DNA of 38,019 bases from an uncultured virus (IMG/VR IMGVR_UViG_2061766007_000422) (taxonomy: Duplodnaviria > Heunggongvirae > Uroviricota > Caudoviricetes). Shown here piece by piece: positions 1,346 to 14,418 of this stretch. Within the stretch, counting starts at the first letter, position 1. Each line of letters begins with the position of its first letter. A program made the translations under genes and the position numbers. The DNA lies in IMG/VR virus record IMGVR_UViG_2061766007_000422; one strand, given 5' to 3'. Below the pieces are notes generated by a model. The model had not been told where the DNA came from and did no database searches. It saw only the letters and a program-made list of their open reading frames with translations.

Positions 1346-1439
1346 TGGTTTGGAGTGCCTTTACCATCATTTTTGCAATATCTGTTTCACTACTAATGCC
1401 GTAGCACGTGATACTAACATTTGAGCTTAATGGCTCCAA
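1346..1439 (-). ncRNA. CCA-ended non-cloverleaf RNA
   Basis: TTGGAG/CTCCAA stem followed by ACCA; inner stem GCCATTA/TGATGGT; begins 1 nt after tRNA-Lys. Confidence 0.5.
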
Positions 1440-1440
1440 G

Positions 1441-1512
1441 TGCGCCTGGCGAGGATCGAACTCGCGTTCATAGATTAAAAGTCATGTGCTCTACCGACTG
1501 AGCTACGGGCAC
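1441..1512 (-). tRNA. tRNA-Lys(TTT) with an irregular anticodon stem
   Basis: D arm GCTCAGTCGGTAGAGC, loop CTTTTAA, T arm GCGAG-TTCGATC-CTCGC; stem CATGA/TC(T)ATG needs a bulge. Confidence 0.85.
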
Positions 1513-1516
1513 AAAA

Positions 1517-1601
1517 CGGAAGATGAAGGAGTCGAACCTTCGAGCCCTCTCGGGCCGACGCGTTAGCAGTGCGTTGCCTTAAGCCACTCGGCCAATCTTC
1601 C
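1517..1601 (-). tRNA. tRNA-Ser(GCT)
   Basis: GGAAGAT/ATCTTCC acceptor, loop CTGCTAA, long variable arm GGCCC-GAGA-GGGCT, T loop TTCGACT. Confidence 0.95.
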
Positions 1602-1607
1602 ATAAAC

Positions 1608-1663
1608 GCGGCAGTAAAAATAAGAATTTACAGTCCTTGTAATATTATTGCTATTTCTGCCGC
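1608..1663 (-). ncRNA. stem-ATAGCAA short RNA carrying a Tyr(GTA)-like anticodon hairpin
   Basis: GCGGCAG/CTGCCGC stem, ATAGCAA, AAGGA-CTGTAAA-TTCTT hairpin, no D or T arm. Confidence 0.55.
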
Positions 1664-1670
1664 AAATAAG

Positions 1671-1708
1671 TCTCCTAGTGGTGCGCATTATGAAGAGGCG
1701 TAAGGAGA
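1671..1708. other. compact stem-loop between GIY-YIG gene and tRNA array
   Basis: TCTCCT/AGGAGA outer stem with inner CGC/GCG hairpin; GC-rich island in AT-rich context. Confidence 0.4.
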
Positions 1709-1718
1709 ACGTAATTAT

Positions 1719-2648
1719 TTATACTATATATTTCCAATGAAGTTTTTCTTTAGTTTCTGGATGTTTTCCTGCAGATTTATAGCTACCTCTACCGGCTAAA
1801 TAATCCTTAATAGGGCTGCTACTTTTTAAACCACACCAATTTGCTGCTTCACGCACGGAAGGAAAAATTTGTTGTGTTTCAATACATTGAACCATTTTTC
1901 CTAAATGCTGGGGAACTGCTGGCAATTTATCCAATTTTTCTTTTGACCACTGGTAGCCATATGCTAAATTTTGATTATTATCTTTATGTAATGCACGACT
2001 AATATTGGTTTCACAGCCAGCATAAGTCTTTCCAATAGCTCTACAAGCACTAGTGATAGAAGGATAAGAAGCAATATATTTGCCATCTATTGAATATTGG
2101 TGAATTTCAATAACATCTGAAAAATATATTTTTTGATTTTCAGAAAAATTATATTTTTCGCCAACTTTTATTTTTCCTTGTTTTATTGCACGAATAGCGC
2201 CGCGAGAATGGCTTGTTGTGGCATTATAATCATGATAACCTTTTAAACGATATTGTACGAGTGTATGACCGCATCCAACGATTTCTGTAATTTCTTTTAC
2301 ACTATAACCATCATCCCATAGTTGTCTTATTAAAATTGGGTCAAAAATCCAACTATTTTCACCTTGTCCGCCTTTGGTAGAATTATATCCATTATTAAAA
2401 GAATCATAATAATTTATCCAATAACGTTCTTTAGCGTCTAATACACTTGAGTCTAAATTACATTCTTCAATTACTTCAAAGATAAAATTATCAATTCCGT
2501 CTTCTTCCATCGCAGGATATAATTTTCCATTTTTTCTTTTATTTTTAGCCTCATAAATATGTTGTATCCAACGATTTTTTATATCAATACTTTGACCAAT
2601 ATAAACTTTATTATTTAAAATATTTGTAATTTTATAAATACCAATCAT
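1719..2648 (-). CDS. GIY-YIG homing endonuclease with HTH/NUMOD-like C-terminal repeats
   Basis: GIYKITN..VYIGQS..RW..H, ERYWI, GYNST.GG; ATG 2648 preferred to GTG 2657 on RBS spacing. Confidence 0.92.
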   Translation of the reverse strand: MIGIYKITNILNNKVYIGQSIDIKNRWIQHIYEAKNKRKNGKLYPAMEEDGIDNFIFEVIEECNLDSSVLDAKERYWINYYDSFNNGYNSTKGGQGENSWIFDPILIRQLWDDGYSVKEITEIVGCGHTLVQYRLKGYHDYNATTSHSRGAIRAIKQGKIKVGEKYNFSENQKIYFSDVIEIHQYSIDGKYIASYPSITSACRAIGKTYAGCETNISRALHKDNNQNLAYGYQWSKEKLDKLPAVPQHLGKMVQCIETQQIFPSVREAANWCGLKSSSPIKDYLAGRGSYKSAGKHPETKEKLHWKYIV

Positions 2649-2654
2649 AATTTT

Positions 2655-2730
2655 CACCCCATTAAAAATTATTGGCTGAGTGATGGGGCACTCTTATCCC
2701 GTATAGGCGGCCAAACCTTCCGTTTCCCAA
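2655..2730 (-). promoter_or_regulatory. structured leader with an anti-SD loop upstream of GIY-YIG gene
   Basis: GAGTG-CCCCAT-CACTC hairpin whose loop is complementary to the RBS ATGGGG; homologous to 6473-6555. Confidence 0.6.
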
Positions 2731-2738
2731 AATATAAG

Positions 2739-2855
2739 TGCTACCGAGTAGATTCGAACTACCACTGCGTAGATTTTAAAAACCAGTGTAAGTGATGACC
2801 TTACTTCGCTCTGGCTACCGGTTGTCTACTGCCTCTGCCGTTGGGCTACGGTAGC
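2739..2855 (-). tRNA. tRNA-Leu(TAA) interrupted by a 44-nt insertion (2780-2823) in the anticodon loop
   Basis: GCTACCG/CGGTAGC acceptor, D arm GCCCAACGGCAGAGGC, T arm GGTAG-TTCGAAT-CTACT; removing the insert gives GTAGA-CTTAAAA-TCTAC. Confidence 0.85.
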
Positions 2856-2866
2856 ATTTTTTATAT

Positions 2867-3082
2867 TTATATTCTATCTTCGTAATCTTCCCCAAACACT
2901 TCTTCTATGCTTTTTTCCGAATATCCAAGTGCTCGCGCGAAAATCTTACACATACGCTGAAGATTACCAATAGTAGATTTATCTTCTGCTACATGAAAAT
3001 TTATATCAACATCATTAGCAAATTCATTGGTATCATTCCAATACTGAAATTCAAAATGTTCGTTACGTTCAATTTCTTTCAT
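2867..3082 (-). CDS. hypothetical protein
   Basis: ORF in operon, GAGG RBS before ATG 3082. Confidence 0.7.
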   Translation of the reverse strand: MKEIERNEHFEFQYWNDTNEFANDVDINFHVAEDKSTIGNLQRMCKIFARALGYSEKSIEEVFGEDYEDRI

Positions 3083-3086
3083 TATT

Positions 3087-3302
3087 TTAATCCTCTTCAT
3101 CTATTAAACTATCCAAAATTTTTTCACAGAGTGGCATAGTAGCAGGAAAAGTAAAAATACAAATGAAAATAAGCCACCATCGCTGGAAAATTAGCATCAA
3201 TACGGCTGGAACAGTAAAAGTAATTATACCAATCAATACTGTTAAATATAGAATTTTCATCATTTCTTTAAAATTTTTCCAATATTGTTTCATTTTTACC
3301 AT
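3087..3302 (-). CDS. small membrane protein (two hydrophobic segments)
   Basis: Hydrophobic stretches ILYLTVLIGII... and WWLIFICIFTF; overlaps the upstream stop. Confidence 0.7.
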   Translation of the reverse strand: MVKMKQYWKNFKEMMKILYLTVLIGIITFTVPAVLMLIFQRWWLIFICIFTFPATMPLCEKILDSLIDEED

Positions 3303-3481
3303 TCCCTTGCTTCTTTAACAACACAAATCATTTTACAATCAGGACACTGAATAAAAGGAGTTGGAGCAACAAAAAAGGTCATAGTTTTTATATCATCTGT
3401 GGTAAAACGAAATCTACAACCACATTCGGGGCAAGTCTTTTCATATACTTGAAAATTTCCATGCTTTATAACCGTAATCAT
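3296..3481 (-). CDS. zinc-ribbon protein
   Basis: CPECGC...CPDC; first gene after the promoter at 3512-3540. Confidence 0.8.
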   Translation of the reverse strand: MITVIKHGNFQVYEKTCPECGCRFRFTTDDIKTMTFFVAPTPFIQCPDCKMICVVKEAREW

Positions 3482-3511
3482 TTTATTACTTCCTTTCCCT
3501 TTACTATAACT

Positions 3512-3540
3512 ATTATACCATAAATTTTGAAAAAAGTCAA
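3512..3540 (-). promoter_or_regulatory. sigma-A-type promoter
   Basis: TTGACT-N17-TATAAT with TG. Confidence 0.85.
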
Positions 3541-3572
3541 TTAATAAAAATCACTTTAACCATATTTCTCTT

Positions 3573-3722
3573 CTATTTTCCTCTCCAACTATTAAACCAA
3601 GGTTGCCACATAGGACCAGGCTTAGTATCTTCTTCAATTATTTTGTGTATTAAATGTAATAGCCATACTGTAATACAACTTCCTACTCCTAATATCCATA
3701 TCAATATTATGCCTTTTGCCAT
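3573..3722 (-). CDS. 49-aa single-pass membrane protein (not in ORF track)
   Basis: MAKGIILIWILGVGSCITVWLLHLIHKIIEEDTKPGPMWQPWFNSWRGK; GGAGG RBS. Confidence 0.6.
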   Translation of the reverse strand: MAKGIILIWILGVGSCITVWLLHLIHKIIEEDTKPGPMWQPWFNSWRGK

Positions 3723-4150
3723 TCTTCTACCTCCACATTATGCGCCCGCAACCAATCTTGAACCGGCCATCTCTCAGAGCAAGGATTGTCATATTTTTCA
3801 AAAAATATAAACGCAAAATCAAAATCTTCTATTTTAGGAAAGTCGGCGCATAAACGAGCGCGCAAATCAAGTAAATGCTCCATAAATTCATTAAAATCAA
3901 TGGCATCTAATTGCTTGCGATACTCGTGTAAAAATGCGCAGTCTTTAGGATGTTTAGGCTGACATTTACCGTTACAAAGACCATCACAATTCACGCCTGG
4001 GCGCAAAGGCGGACATCTTAAACTAATAACACCATTATTGTCAATTCCGCCAACATTATACCATTTTGGTTCCCAAACTACTGTTGAAAGCGCAACAAGA
4101 TTTTTAGGAAAATTGCGCACCTGTCCCCAATAACTAGTATATAATTTCAT
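3707..4150 (-). CDS. DUF488-like protein
   Basis: N-terminal YTSYW and C-terminal F.EK..NPCSER..V.DWL resemble phage DUF488-type proteins (recalled pattern). Confidence 0.55.
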   Translation of the reverse strand: MKLYTSYWGQVRNFPKNLVALSTVVWEPKWYNVGGIDNNGVISLRCPPLRPGVNCDGLCNGKCQPKHPKDCAFLHEYRKQLDAIDFNEFMEHLLDLRARLCADFPKIEDFDFAFIFFEKYDNPCSERWPVQDWLRAHNVEVEEWQKA

Positions 4151-4244
4151 TCCTCTTGTAAATCCTCATCAAACATCCAACTATCTTTACTATCTTCGCG
4201 CGCTTGTTCTATTTCGGCCCGTAGTTCTTCATCACTTGTATCTT
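4147..4244 (-). CDS. 3' fragment homologous to the end of 4268-4528
   Basis: ...EELRAEIEQAREDSKDSWMFDEDLQEE vs EEIKAEILKVREDCKDSWVFD; cut by N gap. Confidence 0.6.
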
Positions 4245-4267
4245 NNNNNNNNNNTTGACCCCAATAA

Positions 4268-4528
4268 CTAGTGTATAATTTCATTCTCATCCTTCCACTG
4301 ATGCCAATATTCCACATCAAACACCCAACTGTCTTTACAATCTTCGCGCACTTTTAGAATTTCTGCTTTTATTTCTTCTGGAGTTTTTTGCCCAAGTATA
4401 GCATAAAAATCATCTAATAATTTACTTAACTCTACACTGCTCAAGGGCTCATACTTTCCAAATACAATTGGTTTTATTGGTTTATCTAAACCTTCATGCA
4501 TTTTTACTTCTGAAATATCAAGAGACAT
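4268..4528 (-). CDS. hypothetical protein
   Basis: ATG 4528 after AAGGGG RBS. Confidence 0.7.
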   Translation of the reverse strand: MSLDISEVKMHEGLDKPIKPIVFGKYEPLSSVELSKLLDDFYAILGQKTPEEIKAEILKVREDCKDSWVFDVEYWHQWKDENEIIH

Positions 4529-4529
4529 A

Positions 4530-4754
4530 CTACCCCTTCTTCGCAATAAACTTCATTTCAATTGTAGTACCTTCTGGAATAGTATAATTCTGAAAATAAT
4601 TTGTAGGTAAATGACACATAATACTCGCGCCTTCCTTAACAAAGCACTTCTGATATTCTTCATTTCCATTTTCTTTAAGAGTGCGCATAAGCCATTTATA
4701 AATAGATTCTATAAATTCTGTTTTTGTTGTGGTTGAATCCAATTTTTTAGTCAT
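4530..4754 (-). CDS. hypothetical protein
   Basis: AAGGAG RBS, first gene after the promoter at 4786-4814. Confidence 0.75.
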   Translation of the reverse strand: MTKKLDSTTTKTEFIESIYKWLMRTLKENGNEEYQKCFVKEGASIMCHLPTNYFQNYTIPEGTTIEMKFIAKKG

Positions 4755-4785
4755 TATAATTTTCTCCTTTACTCTTTCTAAAATA

Positions 4786-4814
4786 ATTATACAATAATTT
4801 TAGAAAAAAGTCAA
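4786..4814 (-). promoter_or_regulatory. sigma-A-type promoter
   Basis: TTGACT-N17-TATAAT. Confidence 0.8.
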
Positions 4815-4824
4815 ATAAAAAAAC

Positions 4825-4883
4825 TAGACGGGTTTAATAAAATAACAAATTTCGTTTAAAACAAAAATTGCTGCACCCGTCTA
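4825..4883 (-). ncRNA. stem-GCAGCAA short RNA (may also terminate transcription)
   Basis: TAGACGGGT/ACCCGTCTA stem, GCAGCAA, AT-rich interior, followed by a T-run. Confidence 0.55.
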
Positions 4884-4894
4884 ATAAGATAATT

Positions 4895-4947
4895 ATCACG
4901 GCATAACCTAGGATACAGTGCCCAATATAAGGCGCTGTTGCCGCGAT
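4895..4947 (-). ncRNA. structured element in tRNA-Pro trailer
   Basis: ATCGCGGCA/TGCCGTGAT stem enclosing ACAGCGCC..GGCACTGT hairpin. Confidence 0.4.
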
Positions 4948-4989
4948 TTTCTCACACATCCGCAATATTCGTAGCCTTGCGGCGGCTAG

Positions 4990-5062
4990 TCGAGATGGCA
5001 GGCTTTGCTCCTGCGACAAACGCTCCCAAAGCGCACATGTTACTGAACTACACTACATCTCG
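4990..5062 (-). tRNA. tRNA-Pro(TGG) with atypical T loop
   Basis: CGAGATG/CATCTCG acceptor, loop TTTGGGA, GCAGG-AGCAAAG-CCTGC T arm. Confidence 0.88.
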
Positions 5063-5077
5063 ATAAAATGGCCGTGA

Positions 5078-5608
5078 TTACGGCCATTCTTCTGATAATT
5101 CAGAAAAAACTGGGTCTTCTATATTAGTGCAATAATATAGATTAGGACGTTCACCAAATACATCCAGTGCAATATCCTGATATAAAGTAGAACGATTACC
5201 AAAGTAATCACTCAAATTATCGGTATAATACTGCACAACTTGTTTATTGAAGACAACATAAGTAATACCATCAAGTAACATTACACCATGAATGGTCTTG
5301 GCAAAAGCAAAAGCGCCATTGCCATTAAAGGCGGCTTCATAAAGATCATCAATAGGCGTATCATCATCAATAGTGGCTTCCTCACCATTCGCGGGAACAA
5401 CCTGTATCTTAAGCTTAATGTTACCAAATTCATACTCTTCGGGGAGCAGAATAGTTAGCGCAGCGGCCTTGTCATCATCATCTACGTAAAGCTTAACTTC
5501 ATAGTTATCTTCATCAAAGATGACGTGAACCTCTGGGTCATACTTGAAAAGTGCGGCAATCTGTGAATAACGAATACACCAACCAGGGCTTAGTTTTAGT
5601 CTTGCCAT
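5078..5608 (-). CDS. hypothetical acidic phage protein
   Basis: 176-aa ORF, AAGGAG RBS. Confidence 0.8.
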   Translation of the reverse strand: MARLKLSPGWCIRYSQIAALFKYDPEVHVIFDEDNYEVKLYVDDDDKAAALTILLPEEYEFGNIKLKIQVVPANGEEATIDDDTPIDDLYEAAFNGNGAFAFAKTIHGVMLLDGITYVVFNKQVVQYYTDNLSDYFGNRSTLYQDIALDVFGERPNLYYCTNIEDPVFSELSEEWP

Positions 5609-5611
5609 ATT

Positions 5612-6466
5612 TTATATCTCCTTATCAATAAATTTCCAACCAAATCCTTTTGATGTTTTTAATATACCACGACAAACTCTACTAAGTGTAGAAACACAAC
5701 CGTTTATTTCTCTTGCCGCAGTAGACAAAGAAGGAAAGGTTTTTATTATTTCATTTGTATTTAAATCTATTTGTGCAACTGCACGAGCGGTCATATCTCT
5801 AGTTTTATTTGGAAGTTGTACTTCCCAAAAATAATCTTTGTAAAAATTATGATGTGTTGACAAACCTTCTCGAAAAGTTGCCCTACAAACTCCTAAAGAT
5901 ATCGCTGCTTGAGCCAAAGAAGAAAATTCTTCAATTGCTTCAAACGTAATTGGGTCTCTTTTTATAATTTTTTTAGCATATGGCATATATGAACTTTTTG
6001 CATTTTCTTTGCTTCGTTCTAATTTTTCTTCTGTAGTTATACCATTAGAACTTAATACTATACCAACTGCTGATGGACTACAAGAAACTATTTCACTAAT
6101 TTGCTTAATACTGAAACCTTCTTCCCATAATTCTGCAATTTTATTATGGTCATGTAAGTTATGTCCATCTCCACCCAATGTTAAATTATAACCATTATTA
6201 TAACTGTCATAATATTCTATCCAATATCTTTCTCGTTCATCTAATTGTTCAATAGGAACTAATTCAATAATTTCATAATTAAAATTTTCATTACCATATT
6301 CTCTAATTGCTTTATAAAGAGCTGAATTATTATATTTTTTCCAATTTGGGTGTAAAGCTGCACTTTTATGTGCATACCATCTAGTATAAATATCGCAACT
6401 TTTTCCTATATAAACTTGATTATTTATTTTATTAGTAATTTTATAAATTCCGCTTAAAACTTTCAT
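5612..6466 (-). CDS. GIY-YIG homing endonuclease with NUMOD1-like repeats
   Basis: GIYKITN..VYIGKS, ERERYWI, GYNLTLGG; two F.SL..AA...WE/WK repeats. Confidence 0.92.
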   Translation of the reverse strand: MKVLSGIYKITNKINNQVYIGKSCDIYTRWYAHKSAALHPNWKKYNNSALYKAIREYGNENFNYEIIELVPIEQLDERERYWIEYYDSYNNGYNLTLGGDGHNLHDHNKIAELWEEGFSIKQISEIVSCSPSAVGIVLSSNGITTEEKLERSKENAKSSYMPYAKKIIKRDPITFEAIEEFSSLAQAAISLGVCRATFREGLSTHHNFYKDYFWEVQLPNKTRDMTARAVAQIDLNTNEIIKTFPSLSTAAREINGCVSTLSRVCRGILKTSKGFGWKFIDKEI

Positions 6467-6472
6467 TATTAT

Positions 6473-6555
6473 CAACCCCTACTTGATAATAATATAAGGC
6501 TGAATAATAGGGGTATTCTTATCTCATAAAAGAGCGACCTTTATGCTACCCTTAT
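6473..6555 (-). promoter_or_regulatory. structured leader with an anti-SD loop upstream of GIY-YIG gene
   Basis: GAATA-CCCCTAT-TATTC hairpin, loop complementary to the RBS TAGGGG; homologous to 2655-2730. Confidence 0.6.
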
Positions 6556-6570
6556 ATTATTTAAATATAA

Positions 6571-6652
6571 ATTAGACCTATTTTGACCTGCTCTACCAGC
6601 TGAGCTACTTGTGCAAGCACAAGGTTGGGTTCGAACCGGTAGATAAGCTAAT
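6571..6652 (-). ncRNA. circularly permuted tRNA module, YrlA-type Y RNA candidate
   Basis: 5'->3' order: GGTTCGAACC T loop, loop-closed acceptor stem CTTGTG-CTTG-CACAAG, D arm TAGCTCAGCTGGTAGAGC; closed by ATTAGCTTAT/ATAGGTCTAAT. Confidence 0.75.
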
Positions 6653-6787
6653 AGTGATTTTTCGCACTTCCGCGGATTTCCATGCCTGGTTATACCACCA
6701 ACCCTTCCGCTCTATGTCGGTTGTGTCCTGATACCGAAAAACATCCAGTAGACTTTATTTAATGTTGTTGCTACTGTCCTCAACAAG

Positions 6788-6859
6788 CGACTCTACCGTG
6801 AATTGAACACGGACCTCGTGATAGACAGTCACGCATCATAGCCATTAGACCATAGAGCC
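6788..6859 (-). tRNA. tRNA-Asp(GTC)
   Basis: GGCTCTA/TAGAGTC acceptor, CGTGA-CTGTCTA-TCACG, CCGTG-TTCAATT-CACGG. Confidence 0.93.
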
Positions 6860-6926
6860 AAATATTAGCTTTAAGGTCAGCTAACCGCGCATGCTCGTTT
6901 TACTTCCACATTTGCTTTCAGAAGAA

Positions 6927-6999
6927 CGCCCAGTGAGAATTACGATATCCCGACACCAACGTTAACAGCGTTGCGCTCTACCAACTGAGCTAACTGGGC
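6927..6999 (-). tRNA. tRNA-Asn(GTT) with atypical T arm
   Basis: GCCCAGT/ACTGGGC, canonical D arm, CAACG-CTGTTAA-CGTTG; T loop ATCGTAA. Confidence 0.88.
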
Positions 7000-7004
7000 A
7001 AAAA

Positions 7005-7068
7005 GTGGGCTGATTTAAAAGTTTATAGCATACACGCATCTTCTAAATCTTTTCGCTGCCGTGCCCAC
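7005..7068 (-). ncRNA. stem-GCAGCGA short RNA
   Basis: GTGGGC/GCCCAC stem, GCAGCGA, internal TGCTAT as in 127-202 and 230-286. Confidence 0.45.
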
Positions 7069-7165
7069 AACGGCCGATTTCGTTCGCGGATTATCTCGCG
7101 GGACGCCCCAAGCGTAGTCTTTTCATACTCGCTCGCGCTAGCAATTGTAATGGACGTTGCCAACA

Positions 7166-8989: not shown

Positions 8990-9640
8990 TTATTTATATT
9001 TCCATATATAACCACCAGCAGTCTTTAATTTTCCTTGGCAAGCTCGTGCTAGATTGCTGGTCGGGATAGATGTTTGACGAGAAGCTTCACTTATAGATAC
9101 ATATTCTTGTATTAACTCTTCTTGTAAATTATATTGTAATATTGGTCGAGCTTTATATTGAGCCCCTCTACGACGTCTTTCGTTGGGAGAAATATTTAAT
9201 TCATCTAAAATATTAGTTAAAGTTTGATGTGTACAATGCGTTATCTCTTTAATTTCTGTATGAGATTTACCTTCATTCCATAATGATAAGATTAAATCTC
9301 TATCATATCTTTTTTTAAAAACATTGGTTTCGCCGCCTGCTGTCATATTATACCCATTACAATTAGGTAATTGAATAAAAGTATGATAATAAGAAATCCA
9401 ATATTTTTCTCTTTCATTTAGTTTTTCTTCTGAACAATATTCTAATATATCAAAAGAAAAATTTTCTATTCCATATGTTCTAATTGCAGTATAAATTAAA
9501 CTATTATACATATCATTATTACGATTAAAAGGCTGGGTACGATGAGCCCGTAATCTTACTTTAAGATTTTTAGACTTACCAATATAGCTTTTTCCATTAC
9601 AATTATTTGTAATTTTATAAATACCAGAATTGTTTTCCAT
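8990..9640 (-). CDS. GIY-YIG homing endonuclease with NUMOD1-like C-terminus
   Basis: GIYKITN..SYIGKS, EREKYWI, GYNMTAGG, ACQGKLKTAGGYIWKY. Confidence 0.92.
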   Translation of the reverse strand: MENNSGIYKITNNCNGKSYIGKSKNLKVRLRAHRTQPFNRNNDMYNSLIYTAIRTYGIENFSFDILEYCSEEKLNEREKYWISYYHTFIQLPNCNGYNMTAGGETNVFKKRYDRDLILSLWNEGKSHTEIKEITHCTHQTLTNILDELNISPNERRRRGAQYKARPILQYNLQEELIQEYVSISEASRQTSIPTSNLARACQGKLKTAGGYIWKYK

Positions 9641-9742
9641 GATTTTTTTTAGCCTCTCATAAACATATACTCCTTTTATATTTGCGATTCCTTACTCGCA
9701 TTATATTTGTTGATTGGGTTCCTTTCCCCTTTCAACATAATA

Positions 9743-13491: not shown

Positions 13492-14418
13492 CTTAATCCC
13501 GCTACTTTCGTAGGGGCCAGACTATCTCTTCATTTATTCTATTTTCAAGGTCTTCATAATAAGCAATTTGAAGTAATTTGTATCCATTACGTTTACAATA
13601 ATCTTCTTTAATTAAATCGTGTGCGACGGTTTTTAAAAAATTATCTTCACCGCCGAAATAATCTACAGATTTAAAATGTTGACCGCCTTGTAATTCTACA
13701 AGTAGATTTAATTCAGGAATGTAAAAATCAAATGGTAATGGACGTATATCAGCACAATCTTCAAAAATCTTTTGTGCTTCAAATGATATTTTATGCTTTA
13801 ATAATATCGCGCGTGTCTTACTTTCCATTGAAGAAATCATACAACCACAACTTTTAACACTACCACTTTTTAAGTGACGTCCATCTACAACACATTGGTT
13901 TCCACACTCACACTGACAATTATATTTTACGCCTTTTCCAATTTCTGTGGTTCTAGATAAAACTAATAATTTGCCAAATTGTTGCCCAGATAAATCATTG
14001 AATTTTCTTCTGCTACATTGGCTACAAGATTGTATCTTATCTTGCAGAATATGATTGCTTTGTGTTTTAAATTCTTGCTTACAAATAGGACAAATGCAAA
14101 TCCATTTTTTATGCTTTCCTGCGCCCATTGAAGTCTTATCTACTTCTTTAATGTATAAGCCACCATTTAGCATTTGTCCAGTTAAATCTATATACGGTCT
14201 TCCCATTTTATTATCCCCTTAAAAATAAAATAAAGCACGGCGCTTCGTAAGTAGGAATTTCACCTACAAACTACGAGTTATCTCTAGTCGTTACACTTTC
14301 CTATTAAATAGGCTTAGCACGGTATTGGCTTGCCTCTCGGTTTAGCGTTCACCGTTAGCCGCAATTGCGACACCCTAGATTTCTAGGTTCACCGTGTTTA
14401 AAGGCGGCCATTACGTTA
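13492..14418 (-). mobile_element. group I intron (927 nt)
   Basis: P1 GGCGGT/GCCGCC with U.G at the 5' splice site, P3 CACGGTG/CGCCGTG, P7 GACTA/TAGTC, terminal G at 13492, P10 GTAATG/CATTAC. Confidence 0.92.
13502..14206 (-). CDS. intron-encoded endonuclease: Cys-rich DL.GQ repeats + PD-(D/E)xK/Vsr-like domain
   Basis: Two DL(T/S)GQ...C.C..C repeats; PFDFYIP...LVELQGGQHF...HD..K..YC...LLQI.Y. Confidence 0.8.
   Translation of the reverse strand: MGRPYIDLTGQMLNGGLYIKEVDKTSMGAGKHKKWICICPICKQEFKTQSNHILQDKIQSCSQCSRRKFNDLSGQQFGKLLVLSRTTEIGKGVKYNCQCECGNQCVVDGRHLKSGSVKSCGCMISSMESKTRAILLKHKISFEAQKIFEDCADIRPLPFDFYIPELNLLVELQGGQHFKSVDYFGGEDNFLKTVAHDLIKEDYCKRNGYKLLQIAYYEDLENRINEEIVWPLRK

Follow-up and report, generated by a model that had tools for sequence, protein, structure and literature searches.

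A conserved RNA leader that travels with phage homing endonuclease genes and may mask their ribosome-binding sites by loop-loop pairing

Free-standing homing endonucleases are common in phage genomes, and outside T4 little is known, to our knowledge, about how these enzymes are kept from harming the phage that carries them. The question is raised by a 38,019-nucleotide (nt) stretch of DNA from an uncultured virus of the Caudoviricetes (IMG/VR record IMGVR_UViG_2061766007_000422; this whole stretch is called the window below), in which two GIY-YIG homing endonuclease genes, gene 1 and gene 2, lie within arrays of transfer RNA (tRNA) genes and are each preceded by a similar structured leader (leader 1 and leader 2). 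It is proposed, as the reading that we consider reasonably probable, that the leader is a cis-acting translational block moving with the free-standing homing endonuclease gene. In the proposed mechanism three helices (P1, P2 and P3) would meet in a three-way junction, kept together by conserved bases that stay unpaired (NAG linking P1 to P2, GAUAA linking P2 to P3), and the junction would present the P3 loop as an anti-Shine-Dalgarno (anti-SD) sequence. A further hairpin, P4, would display the Shine-Dalgarno sequence (SD) of the gene in its apical loop, with its 3ˊ strand running into the AUG; the P3 and P4 loops would then form a kissing helix of 6-7 base pairs (bp) that hides the SD, so that read-through transcripts from the strong promoters of the tRNA arrays would yield little endonuclease. 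Processing of the tRNA-array transcript, a junction-binding factor or dimerisation via a palindromic P2 loop are candidate means of relief.

The first-pass annotation of the window had described a layout common to both leaders, and each of its elements (P1, a P2 hairpin, GAUAA, a 5-bp P3 and the sequence AGCC) was located in the sequence (Table 1). P3 differs between the leaders by two compensatory changes (GAGUG/CACUC vs GAAUA/UAUUC), with AGCC following both, and its loop is complementary to the downstream SD in either copy (CCCCAU/AUGGGG and CCCCUA/UAGGGG), as that annotation had it. Two parts of the description needed revision. The loop-SD contact stands, but the SD is not single-stranded; it is the apical loop of P4, an AU-rich 8-12 bp hairpin with a 3ˊ strand that extends to the AUG, and the contact is for this reason one of loop to loop. 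A hairpin containing GG(C/T)CGC is present as described, but the feature found across the family is instead a palindromic P2 loop, which leader 1 has in imperfect form and leader 2 has lost. A pattern written from the two leaders has no other match in the window (0.00 expected in 100 shuffles), and R1, a covariance model built from nine leaders and run over the window with filters off, scores 79.2 and 78.3 bits at the leaders and 13.2 bits at the next best match; chance is excluded as the source of their likeness.

Metagenome assemblies contain 1766 homologues of the GIY-YIG proteins at an expectation value (E) up to 0.001, and GIY-YIG similarity was used to collect 241 loci from contigs of viral, metagenome and genome origin. 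Matches at E < 0.01 to R1 or to a second family model, R2, are present in 22 of these 241 loci, all on the gene strand and immediately upstream of the endonuclease start codon, and the weaker members found with the two models are consistently placed. About 30 further leader copies are known beyond the pair in the window, including four added by a pattern scan of IMG/VR (L261, L308, L336 and L342), one from a genome contig (L181) and extra copies from one whole contig. Behind three leaders stands an HNH gene, namely at L336 (phrog_10822), at the second copy of L086 (Pfam HNH_3) and at L350 (HNH motif recognised by eye). Autoregulation by the encoded enzyme, an earlier suggestion, is thus unlikely, because unrelated GIY-YIG and HNH enzymes have the same leader. 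Other searches were less productive: neither megablast of 1400-7100 nor blastn with a leader matched any of 50,697 deposited phage records, the exact two-copy motif pattern met only two GC-rich chance matches in IMG/VR, and single-protein searches of IMG/VR returned weak relatives only, without the leader. Duplicate sequences or alignment rows were counted once per tally (L129 beside L138 and L017 beside L016 in the loop-SD counts; L166 equals L165 throughout; L087 is the same contig as L005 and was left out of the source list). Five candidates were dropped, L151:915, L139 and window:30640 for E > 0.1 and L161 and L062 for an unresolved start codon; L118 was kept in the loop-SD permutation test and left out of the palindrome, P4, single-sequence-fold and junction-base tallies.

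Across this family at least 14 different P3 loop sequences occur, each with its own downstream complement; examples are CCUAUAU/AUAUAGG, CCCUAA/UUAGGG, ACUCGC/GCGAGU and CUCCUAU/AUAGGAG, the last being the loop and SD of the leader at the metagenome loci L085 and L086 (proteins 58% and 48% identical). The near-identical leaders L016 and L030 differ by one compensatory pair, CCUUAU/AUAAGG in one and CCUCAU/AUGAGG in the other. In a scripted test on 27 distinct leaders, in which each loop was set against its own and every other downstream region, the mean longest complement was 6.81 nt for cognate and 5.47 nt for permuted combinations, and none of 20000 permutations reached the cognate value. 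The loop-SD covariation first noticed in two copies thus survives in a larger set, which supports the view that this complementarity is under selection. In 14 of the 27 leaders the site matched by the P3 loop falls in the apical loop of an AUG-ending hairpin, where it is unpaired, 8-11 nt upstream of the start, and the loop-SD duplexes are predicted at -7.5 to -12.8 kcal/mol, six of eight being stronger than with a generic anti-SD.

The helices are likewise borne out by comparison. In a model-fitted alignment of 35 matches, 86.4% of the cells are paired, compared with 60.5% in shuffles and 41-52% with slid partners; the values for P1, P2 and P3 are 90.5%, 92.0% and 94.2%, and each of the 22 pairs in the stored structure (P1-P3 and P4) shows double changes. 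Because a model-fitted alignment leans toward the structure of its model, a count was also made in a plain MAFFT alignment of nine strong leaders, into which the pseudoknot had been written before counting; here P1 is paired at 86%, P2 at 96%, P3 at 98% and the loop-SD helix at 96.8%. The topology that covariation supports is a P1 helix enclosing two complete hairpins, followed by a separate hairpin. Unpaired yet near-invariant bases mark the junction in 28 distinct leaders: the A of column 9 is kept in all 28, the G of column 10 in 24, and each base of G-A-U-A-A in 22 to 27.

That the leader travels with its endonuclease, as had been supposed, is also borne out. In contigs of related phages from three runs (X5, X6 and X17) positions 5569-5613 are joined to 6649-6658 with 19 to about 78 other letters between them, and an X3 contig spans the whole cassette stretch. 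Leader 2 and gene 2 are therefore jointly absent in three runs, which makes the leader part of a mobile cassette, and the same leader family stands before endonuclease genes in many other phage contigs. At its 5ˊ end (6557-6661, minus strand) cassette 2 carries pieces of tRNA, a T-loop-like GGUUCGAACC followed by an acceptor and D-arm 5ˊ half, which are probably remnants of tRNA genes carried by earlier homing events. A joint of 1440 to 2770 in one X3 contig was set aside, as one side has only 41 letters and may reflect tRNA similarity. These comparisons support the interpretation in structure and mobility; from them we infer that the loops would pair in vivo and that translation would be repressed, by a block that may be constitutive or relieved.

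Several observations speak against a translational block, or against parts of it. P4 reaches only 55-77% pairing across the alignments (55% in the MAFFT-only one), its register being shifted from row to row. When the leaders are folded one at a time, the three-way junction is recovered in only 11 of 29, the mean z is -1.27, and leader 1, at z +0.9 to +1.1, folds no better than shuffled sequence. RNAalifold predicted no pairs on a MAFFT alignment of 24 diverse leaders, so that the divergent members draw their support from the model-fitted alignment; together with the weak folding this means that covariation, rather than stability, carries the structural case. The loop complement is present in tandem in a divergent subgroup (L177/L026, L005, L180, L165, L059/L134 and L053), one copy at SD distance from the AUG and the other, often the better match, 10-25 nt further upstream, and the P3 loop could there bind the decoy and leave the SD free. 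The RNA runs, X17 and X20, are assembled contigs with small shares, without RNA ends, strand or levels. Finally, a simple anti-SD hairpin would be enough for masking, and the conserved junction and the palindrome are thus left unexplained by it.

The junction bases, near-invariant beyond the needs of masking, suggest that the three-way junction might sense a metabolite or a phage or host protein and so control docking of the P3 loop on the SD. An aptamer with a downstream expression platform would have a similar layout, and the tandem decoy and SD sites of the divergent subgroup may be two alternative docking states. We nevertheless hold it to be unlikely: no Rfam riboswitch matches the leaders at E up to 10, homing endonucleases are non-metabolic and so their gene context suggests no ligand, and a protein sensor cannot be the encoded enzyme, as GIY-YIG and HNH genes have the same leader.

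The P2 loop invites a different and equally tentative proposal. A 6-nt palindrome of the form U-NNNN-A is present in 22 of 25 distinct P2 hairpins (mean 4.4 and maximum 12 in shuffles), in the classes UAGCUA (9), UCAUGA (6), UAAUUA (4), UGAUCA (2) and UGGCCA (1), while the window copies hold the near-palindrome UGGCCG in leader 1 and none in leader 2. A palindrome confined to a hairpin loop is unable to self-pair in a single molecule, yet it covaries, pointing to the pairing of two molecules or to a dimeric binding partner. The leader might accordingly be a self-dimerising riboregulator in which P2 palindromes kiss at high leader RNA concentration, whereupon either the dimer itself or a double-strand-specific RNase cutting the resulting long helix would reorient or remove the anti-SD loop and free the SD. 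If true, the endonuclease would be made only once tRNA-array transcripts accumulate, and selfish genes would carry, in the leader, a dose-sensing RNA switch common to GIY-YIG and HNH enzymes. A parallel is found in palindromic kissing-loop sites such as the dimerisation initiation site of human immunodeficiency virus type 1: the P2 loop, some 9 nt long, has six self-complementary nt at its centre, which vary among relatives and yet remain self-complementary. The biological context of the viral site is unrelated, the palindrome is lost in leader 2, and dimerisation of the leader is hypothetical.

The neighbourhood of tRNA genes allows yet another role, in the processing or stability of tRNA-array transcripts, with the leader as a structured 5ˊ end that protects the mRNA or as a cleavage site that separates the anti-SD from the SD. 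The leader begins 0-9 nt after an ARAGORN-called tRNA in nine of the 29 loci scanned, four of these tRNAs being tRNA-Leu(UAA), leader 1 and the L350 leader also abut a tRNA as judged by eye, and P1 would put a new 5ˊ end inside a helix. The leader is, however, retained in ten of the 29 loci without any tRNA, so that a tRNA is a frequent neighbour and no requirement, and the covariation of P3 loop and SD is left unexplained; this role is a little less probable still than a sensing junction.

A small self-cleaving ribozyme releasing the upstream tRNA or the mRNA would recall the HDV-like theta ribozymes, which are found no more than 5 nt from Met, suppressor and Leu tRNAs in recoded gut phages (PMC10879173). 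Like these, the leader is a small structured RNA of gut or rumen phages, in some loci abutting genes of their tRNA arrays, among them Leu and CUA-anticodon suppressor tRNAs, and has conserved junction bases and a pseudoknot; the relatives L085 and L086 probably read TAG as sense. Its fold is a different one, a three-way junction with a kissing hairpin rather than a nested double pseudoknot, the HDV, hammerhead, twister, pistol and hatchet models all fail to match at E up to 10, about a third of the leaders are away from any tRNA, and the position is fixed to the downstream start codon, not to the tRNA, so that we regard a ribozyme as very improbable. Least credible of all is that the leaders have no function and are alike through paralogous genes retaining common upstream sequence: the proteins of genes 1 and 2 are 49% identical over their N-terminal 135 residues (their C-terminal parts are unrelated), which makes common descent of the cassettes likely, but compensatory changes affect every helix and the pseudoknot among leaders that MAFFT cannot align, and every match is on the gene strand, right in front of a start codon.

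Table 1. Positions of the two leaders, their parts and the associated features in the window (bp, base pairs; nt, nucleotides; SD, Shine-Dalgarno sequence)
Feature	Position	Strand	Details and basis
Leader 1, full structured 5ˊ leader of gene 1 through AUG (2648-2646)	2646-2732	-	R1 79.2 bits, E 1e-17; R2 63.6 bits
Leader 1 three-way junction	2672-2730	-	P1-P3 and GAUAA; sequence reading, family covariation, palindrome analysis
Leader 1 P1	2730-2727 with 2675-2672	-	UUGG with CCAA
Leader 1 P2 hairpin	2722-2700	-	Loop near-palindrome UGGCCG, 2713-2708
Leader 1 GAUAA junction; P3	2698-2694; 2693-2678	-	P3 GAGUG/CACUC
Leader 1 P3 loop, proposed anti-SD	2683-2688	-	CCCCAU, complement of AUGGGG 2662-2657; predicted duplex -11.9 kcal/mol
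Leader 1 P4 hairpin	2646-2670	-	Stem 2670-2663 with 2656-2649; SD loop AUGGGG 2662-2657; AUG 2648-2646; minimum-free-energy folds
Leader 2, full structured 5ˊ leader of gene 2 through AUG (6466-6464)	6464-6556	-	R1 78.3 bits; R2 77.7 bits
Leader 2 three-way junction	6493-6556	-	Exactly reproduced by minimum-free-energy fold, z -2.5; family covariation
Leader 2 P1	6556-6550 with 6499-6493	-	UAUAAGG with CCUUAUA
Leader 2 P2	6545-6525	-	8 bp, loop non-palindromic
Leader 2 junction; P3	6524-6519; 6518-6502	-	AGAUAA (GAUAA 6523-6519); P3 GAAUA/UAUUC
Leader 2 P3 loop, proposed anti-SD	6507-6513	-	CCCCUAU; CCCCUA 6513-6508 complements UAGGGG 6481-6476; predicted duplex -12.8 kcal/mol
Leader 2 P4 hairpin	6464-6492	-	Stem 6492-6483 with 6475-6466; SD loop GUAGGGG 6482-6476; AUG 6466-6464; minimum-free-energy folds
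GIY-YIG homing endonuclease gene 1	1719-2648, ATG at 2648	-	309 residues; Pfam GIY-YIG 3e-13 and NUMOD1
GIY-YIG homing endonuclease gene 2	5612-6466, ATG at 6466	-	284 residues; Pfam GIY-YIG, SegE_GIY-YIG and NUMOD1
Presence/absence cassette 2	5614-6648	-	About 92 nt of tRNA-like fragments, leader 2 and gene 2; contig comparison
tRNA-Leu(UAA)-like gene	2736-2855	-	3ˊ end abuts leader 1; by eye and by alignment to related tRNA-Leu(UAA) genes
Six promoter-like sites, TTGACT-17 nt-TATAAT	90-62, 3540-3512, 4814-4786, 8038-8010, 8216-8188, 9771-9743	-	Near-identical; TG extension in four

A translational block by loop-loop pairing is therefore retained as the favored interpretation, and the RNA that would exert it is probably an undescribed family. 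A cmscan against Rfam 15, proposed at the outset as a check, gave no match over 2646-2732 or 6464-6556, neither at the gathering score nor at E up to 10, a range that covers riboswitches, hepatitis delta virus (HDV), hammerhead, twister, pistol and hatchet ribozymes, tRNA and introns. The sole Rfam match nearby is a weak one to YrlA at 6559-6661, on the upstream side of leader 2, with 24.5 bits where the threshold is 69, and the Rfam motif cow-rumen-4 (RF02948) matches neither leader, its one window match being at 9683-9738. A group I intron or split tRNA was rejected, since no intron model matches and the open reading frames are directly succeeded by other genes; a hammerhead, a kink-turn and a theta/HDV-like ribozyme were dropped by eye for unfitting topology or consensus; and mimicry of a tRNA by the leader was dismissed for want of a tRNA model match at E up to 10. 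Full-text searches of the literature turned up no description of this leader RNA. A catalogue of structured RNAs from IMG/VR does list, in its supplementary table, three candidates that lie no more than 25 bp upstream of GIY-YIG genes, namely DNAVirus_227 (58 cases), DNAVirus_5494 (48) and DNAVirus_1557 (8) (PMC10690425). Like the leader family they are computed structures immediately 5ˊ of phage GIY-YIG genes; unlike it they are given, in the parts of the catalogue at hand, without description, structure or mechanism. One of them may be the leader family or a subgroup of it, a match made by listed position only.

Besides several homing endonucleases, the window encodes a tail protein and an endolysin, and many of its genes have no assigned function; the only public runs with a near-complete window are bovine gut metagenomes. 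Nearly all genes and all eight Rfam-called tRNA genes are on the minus strand. The six promoter-like sites are probably phage early promoters for a host polymerase of the sigma-70 or sigma-A type, judging by their sequence; strong ones at 8038-8010, 4814-4786 and 3540-3512 (minus strand) head the units that hold genes 1 and 2, and the placement of the leaders inside tRNA arrays is confirmed, both copies being downstream of strong TTGACT-17-TATAAT promoters. Neither gene contains in-frame stop codons. At least five homing-endonuclease-type genes are present in the window, four GIY-YIG-like (one apparently truncated) and one HNH, and only two of them have the leader; the others include 360-863, 8990-9640 and 13502-14206, all on the minus strand. 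A run of 10 N at 4246-4255 lies between two near-identical gene ends, and as related contigs carry 669 letters between 4113 and 4311, the run is an assembly gap hiding about one gene. Between the stop codon of gene 1 and a tRNA-Ser, a sub-threshold match to the abiF RNA motif is located at 1671-1707 (minus strand; 32.7 bits against a threshold of 37, E 0.0075).

The tRNA-Leu(UAA)-like gene next to leader 1 has intact acceptor, D and T arms and a hairpin-forming insert of 44 nt in its anticodon loop, far below the size of a group I intron, and is called by neither ARAGORN nor Rfam. Because this gene abuts endonuclease gene 1, one may speculate that the insert disrupts the target site of the gene 1 enzyme. 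The 'ttta' tRNA at 1440-1512 was considered as a suppressor and rejected, as its loop reads Lys UUU. In the two metagenome loci that are the closest leader-bearing relatives, the GIY-YIG genes (L085, 688-1581; L086, 1501-2337) contain in-frame TAG codons, one of them at a conserved Gln position, and L086 has a tRNA with the anticodon CUA (1311-1400) directly before its leader; TAG is probably a sense codon in both phages.

Other endonuclease genes have upstream elements of their own. The cow-rumen-4 match (49.8 bits, minus strand) lies between the promoter at 9771-9743 and the third GIY-YIG gene (8990-9640, minus strand), is followed by a 3-codon upstream reading frame, and has two hairpin loops with the SD-like AAGGA; it may be another endonuclease leader. 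The HNH gene at 13502-14206 has a different element at 14207-14300 (minus strand), GUGUAACGACUA ... GAGAUAAC plus a hairpin, which resembles the GIY-YIG leaders in L118 (1413-1495) and L143 (about 934-1040), and these may together be a second family of endonuclease leaders. The GIY-YIG loci L032 (about 1104-1200) and L123 (about 1440-1500) have the common upstream motif GAUAAUCUCGUGGGAAG, which is unrelated to the leader family.

Known RNA elements offer two kinds of precedent for a hidden SD. In the SAM-II, preQ1-II/III and fluoride riboswitches and in the loop-loop kiss of purine riboswitches, a loop or pseudoknot contact gates the SD and junction bases are conserved; the leader family differs in having no Rfam match and in that the kissing partner is a separate start-codon hairpin. 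The other precedent comes from T4, where segB is a GIY-YIG gene inside the tRNA cluster. Hairpins that sequester the ribosome-binding site (RBS) are described for homing endonuclease genes of the T4 group, namely I-TevI, I-TevII, I-TevIII, segB and mobE of Aeh1, and the first-pass annotation was right to invoke them (PMC2988022). There the RBS is sequestered by structures on early transcripts, and a late promoter inside the structure bypasses the block (PMC2988022). The two systems are alike in that a phage homing endonuclease gene on long read-through transcripts has its RBS base-paired in an upstream RNA structure, here as a prediction from sequence comparison. The T4-type structures are single, local, gene-specific hairpins with the SD in the stem, whereas the leader family is a conserved four-helix RNA of many phages and two nuclease families, in which the SD occupies the apical loop of P4 and pairs over a long range with the P3 loop; this comparison is one of principle, not of sequence. 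A scan with the sigma-70 consensus found no strong site inside the leaders and 9-of-12 sites at chance level at gene starts, though phage late promoters may differ from this consensus. New with respect to the T4 principle are thus the conserved family, the long-range loop-loop contact, the conserved junction, the palindromic P2 loop and the lack of an evident internal promoter.

The leader is a conserved multi-helix RNA that accompanies endonuclease genes of two unrelated nuclease families in many uncultured gut and rumen phages, and it provides a covariation-supported model of long-range RBS masking by which such genes could be kept quiet within their carriers. The family would be a candidate for its own entry in Rfam and could mark endonuclease cassettes among phage contigs from metagenomes.

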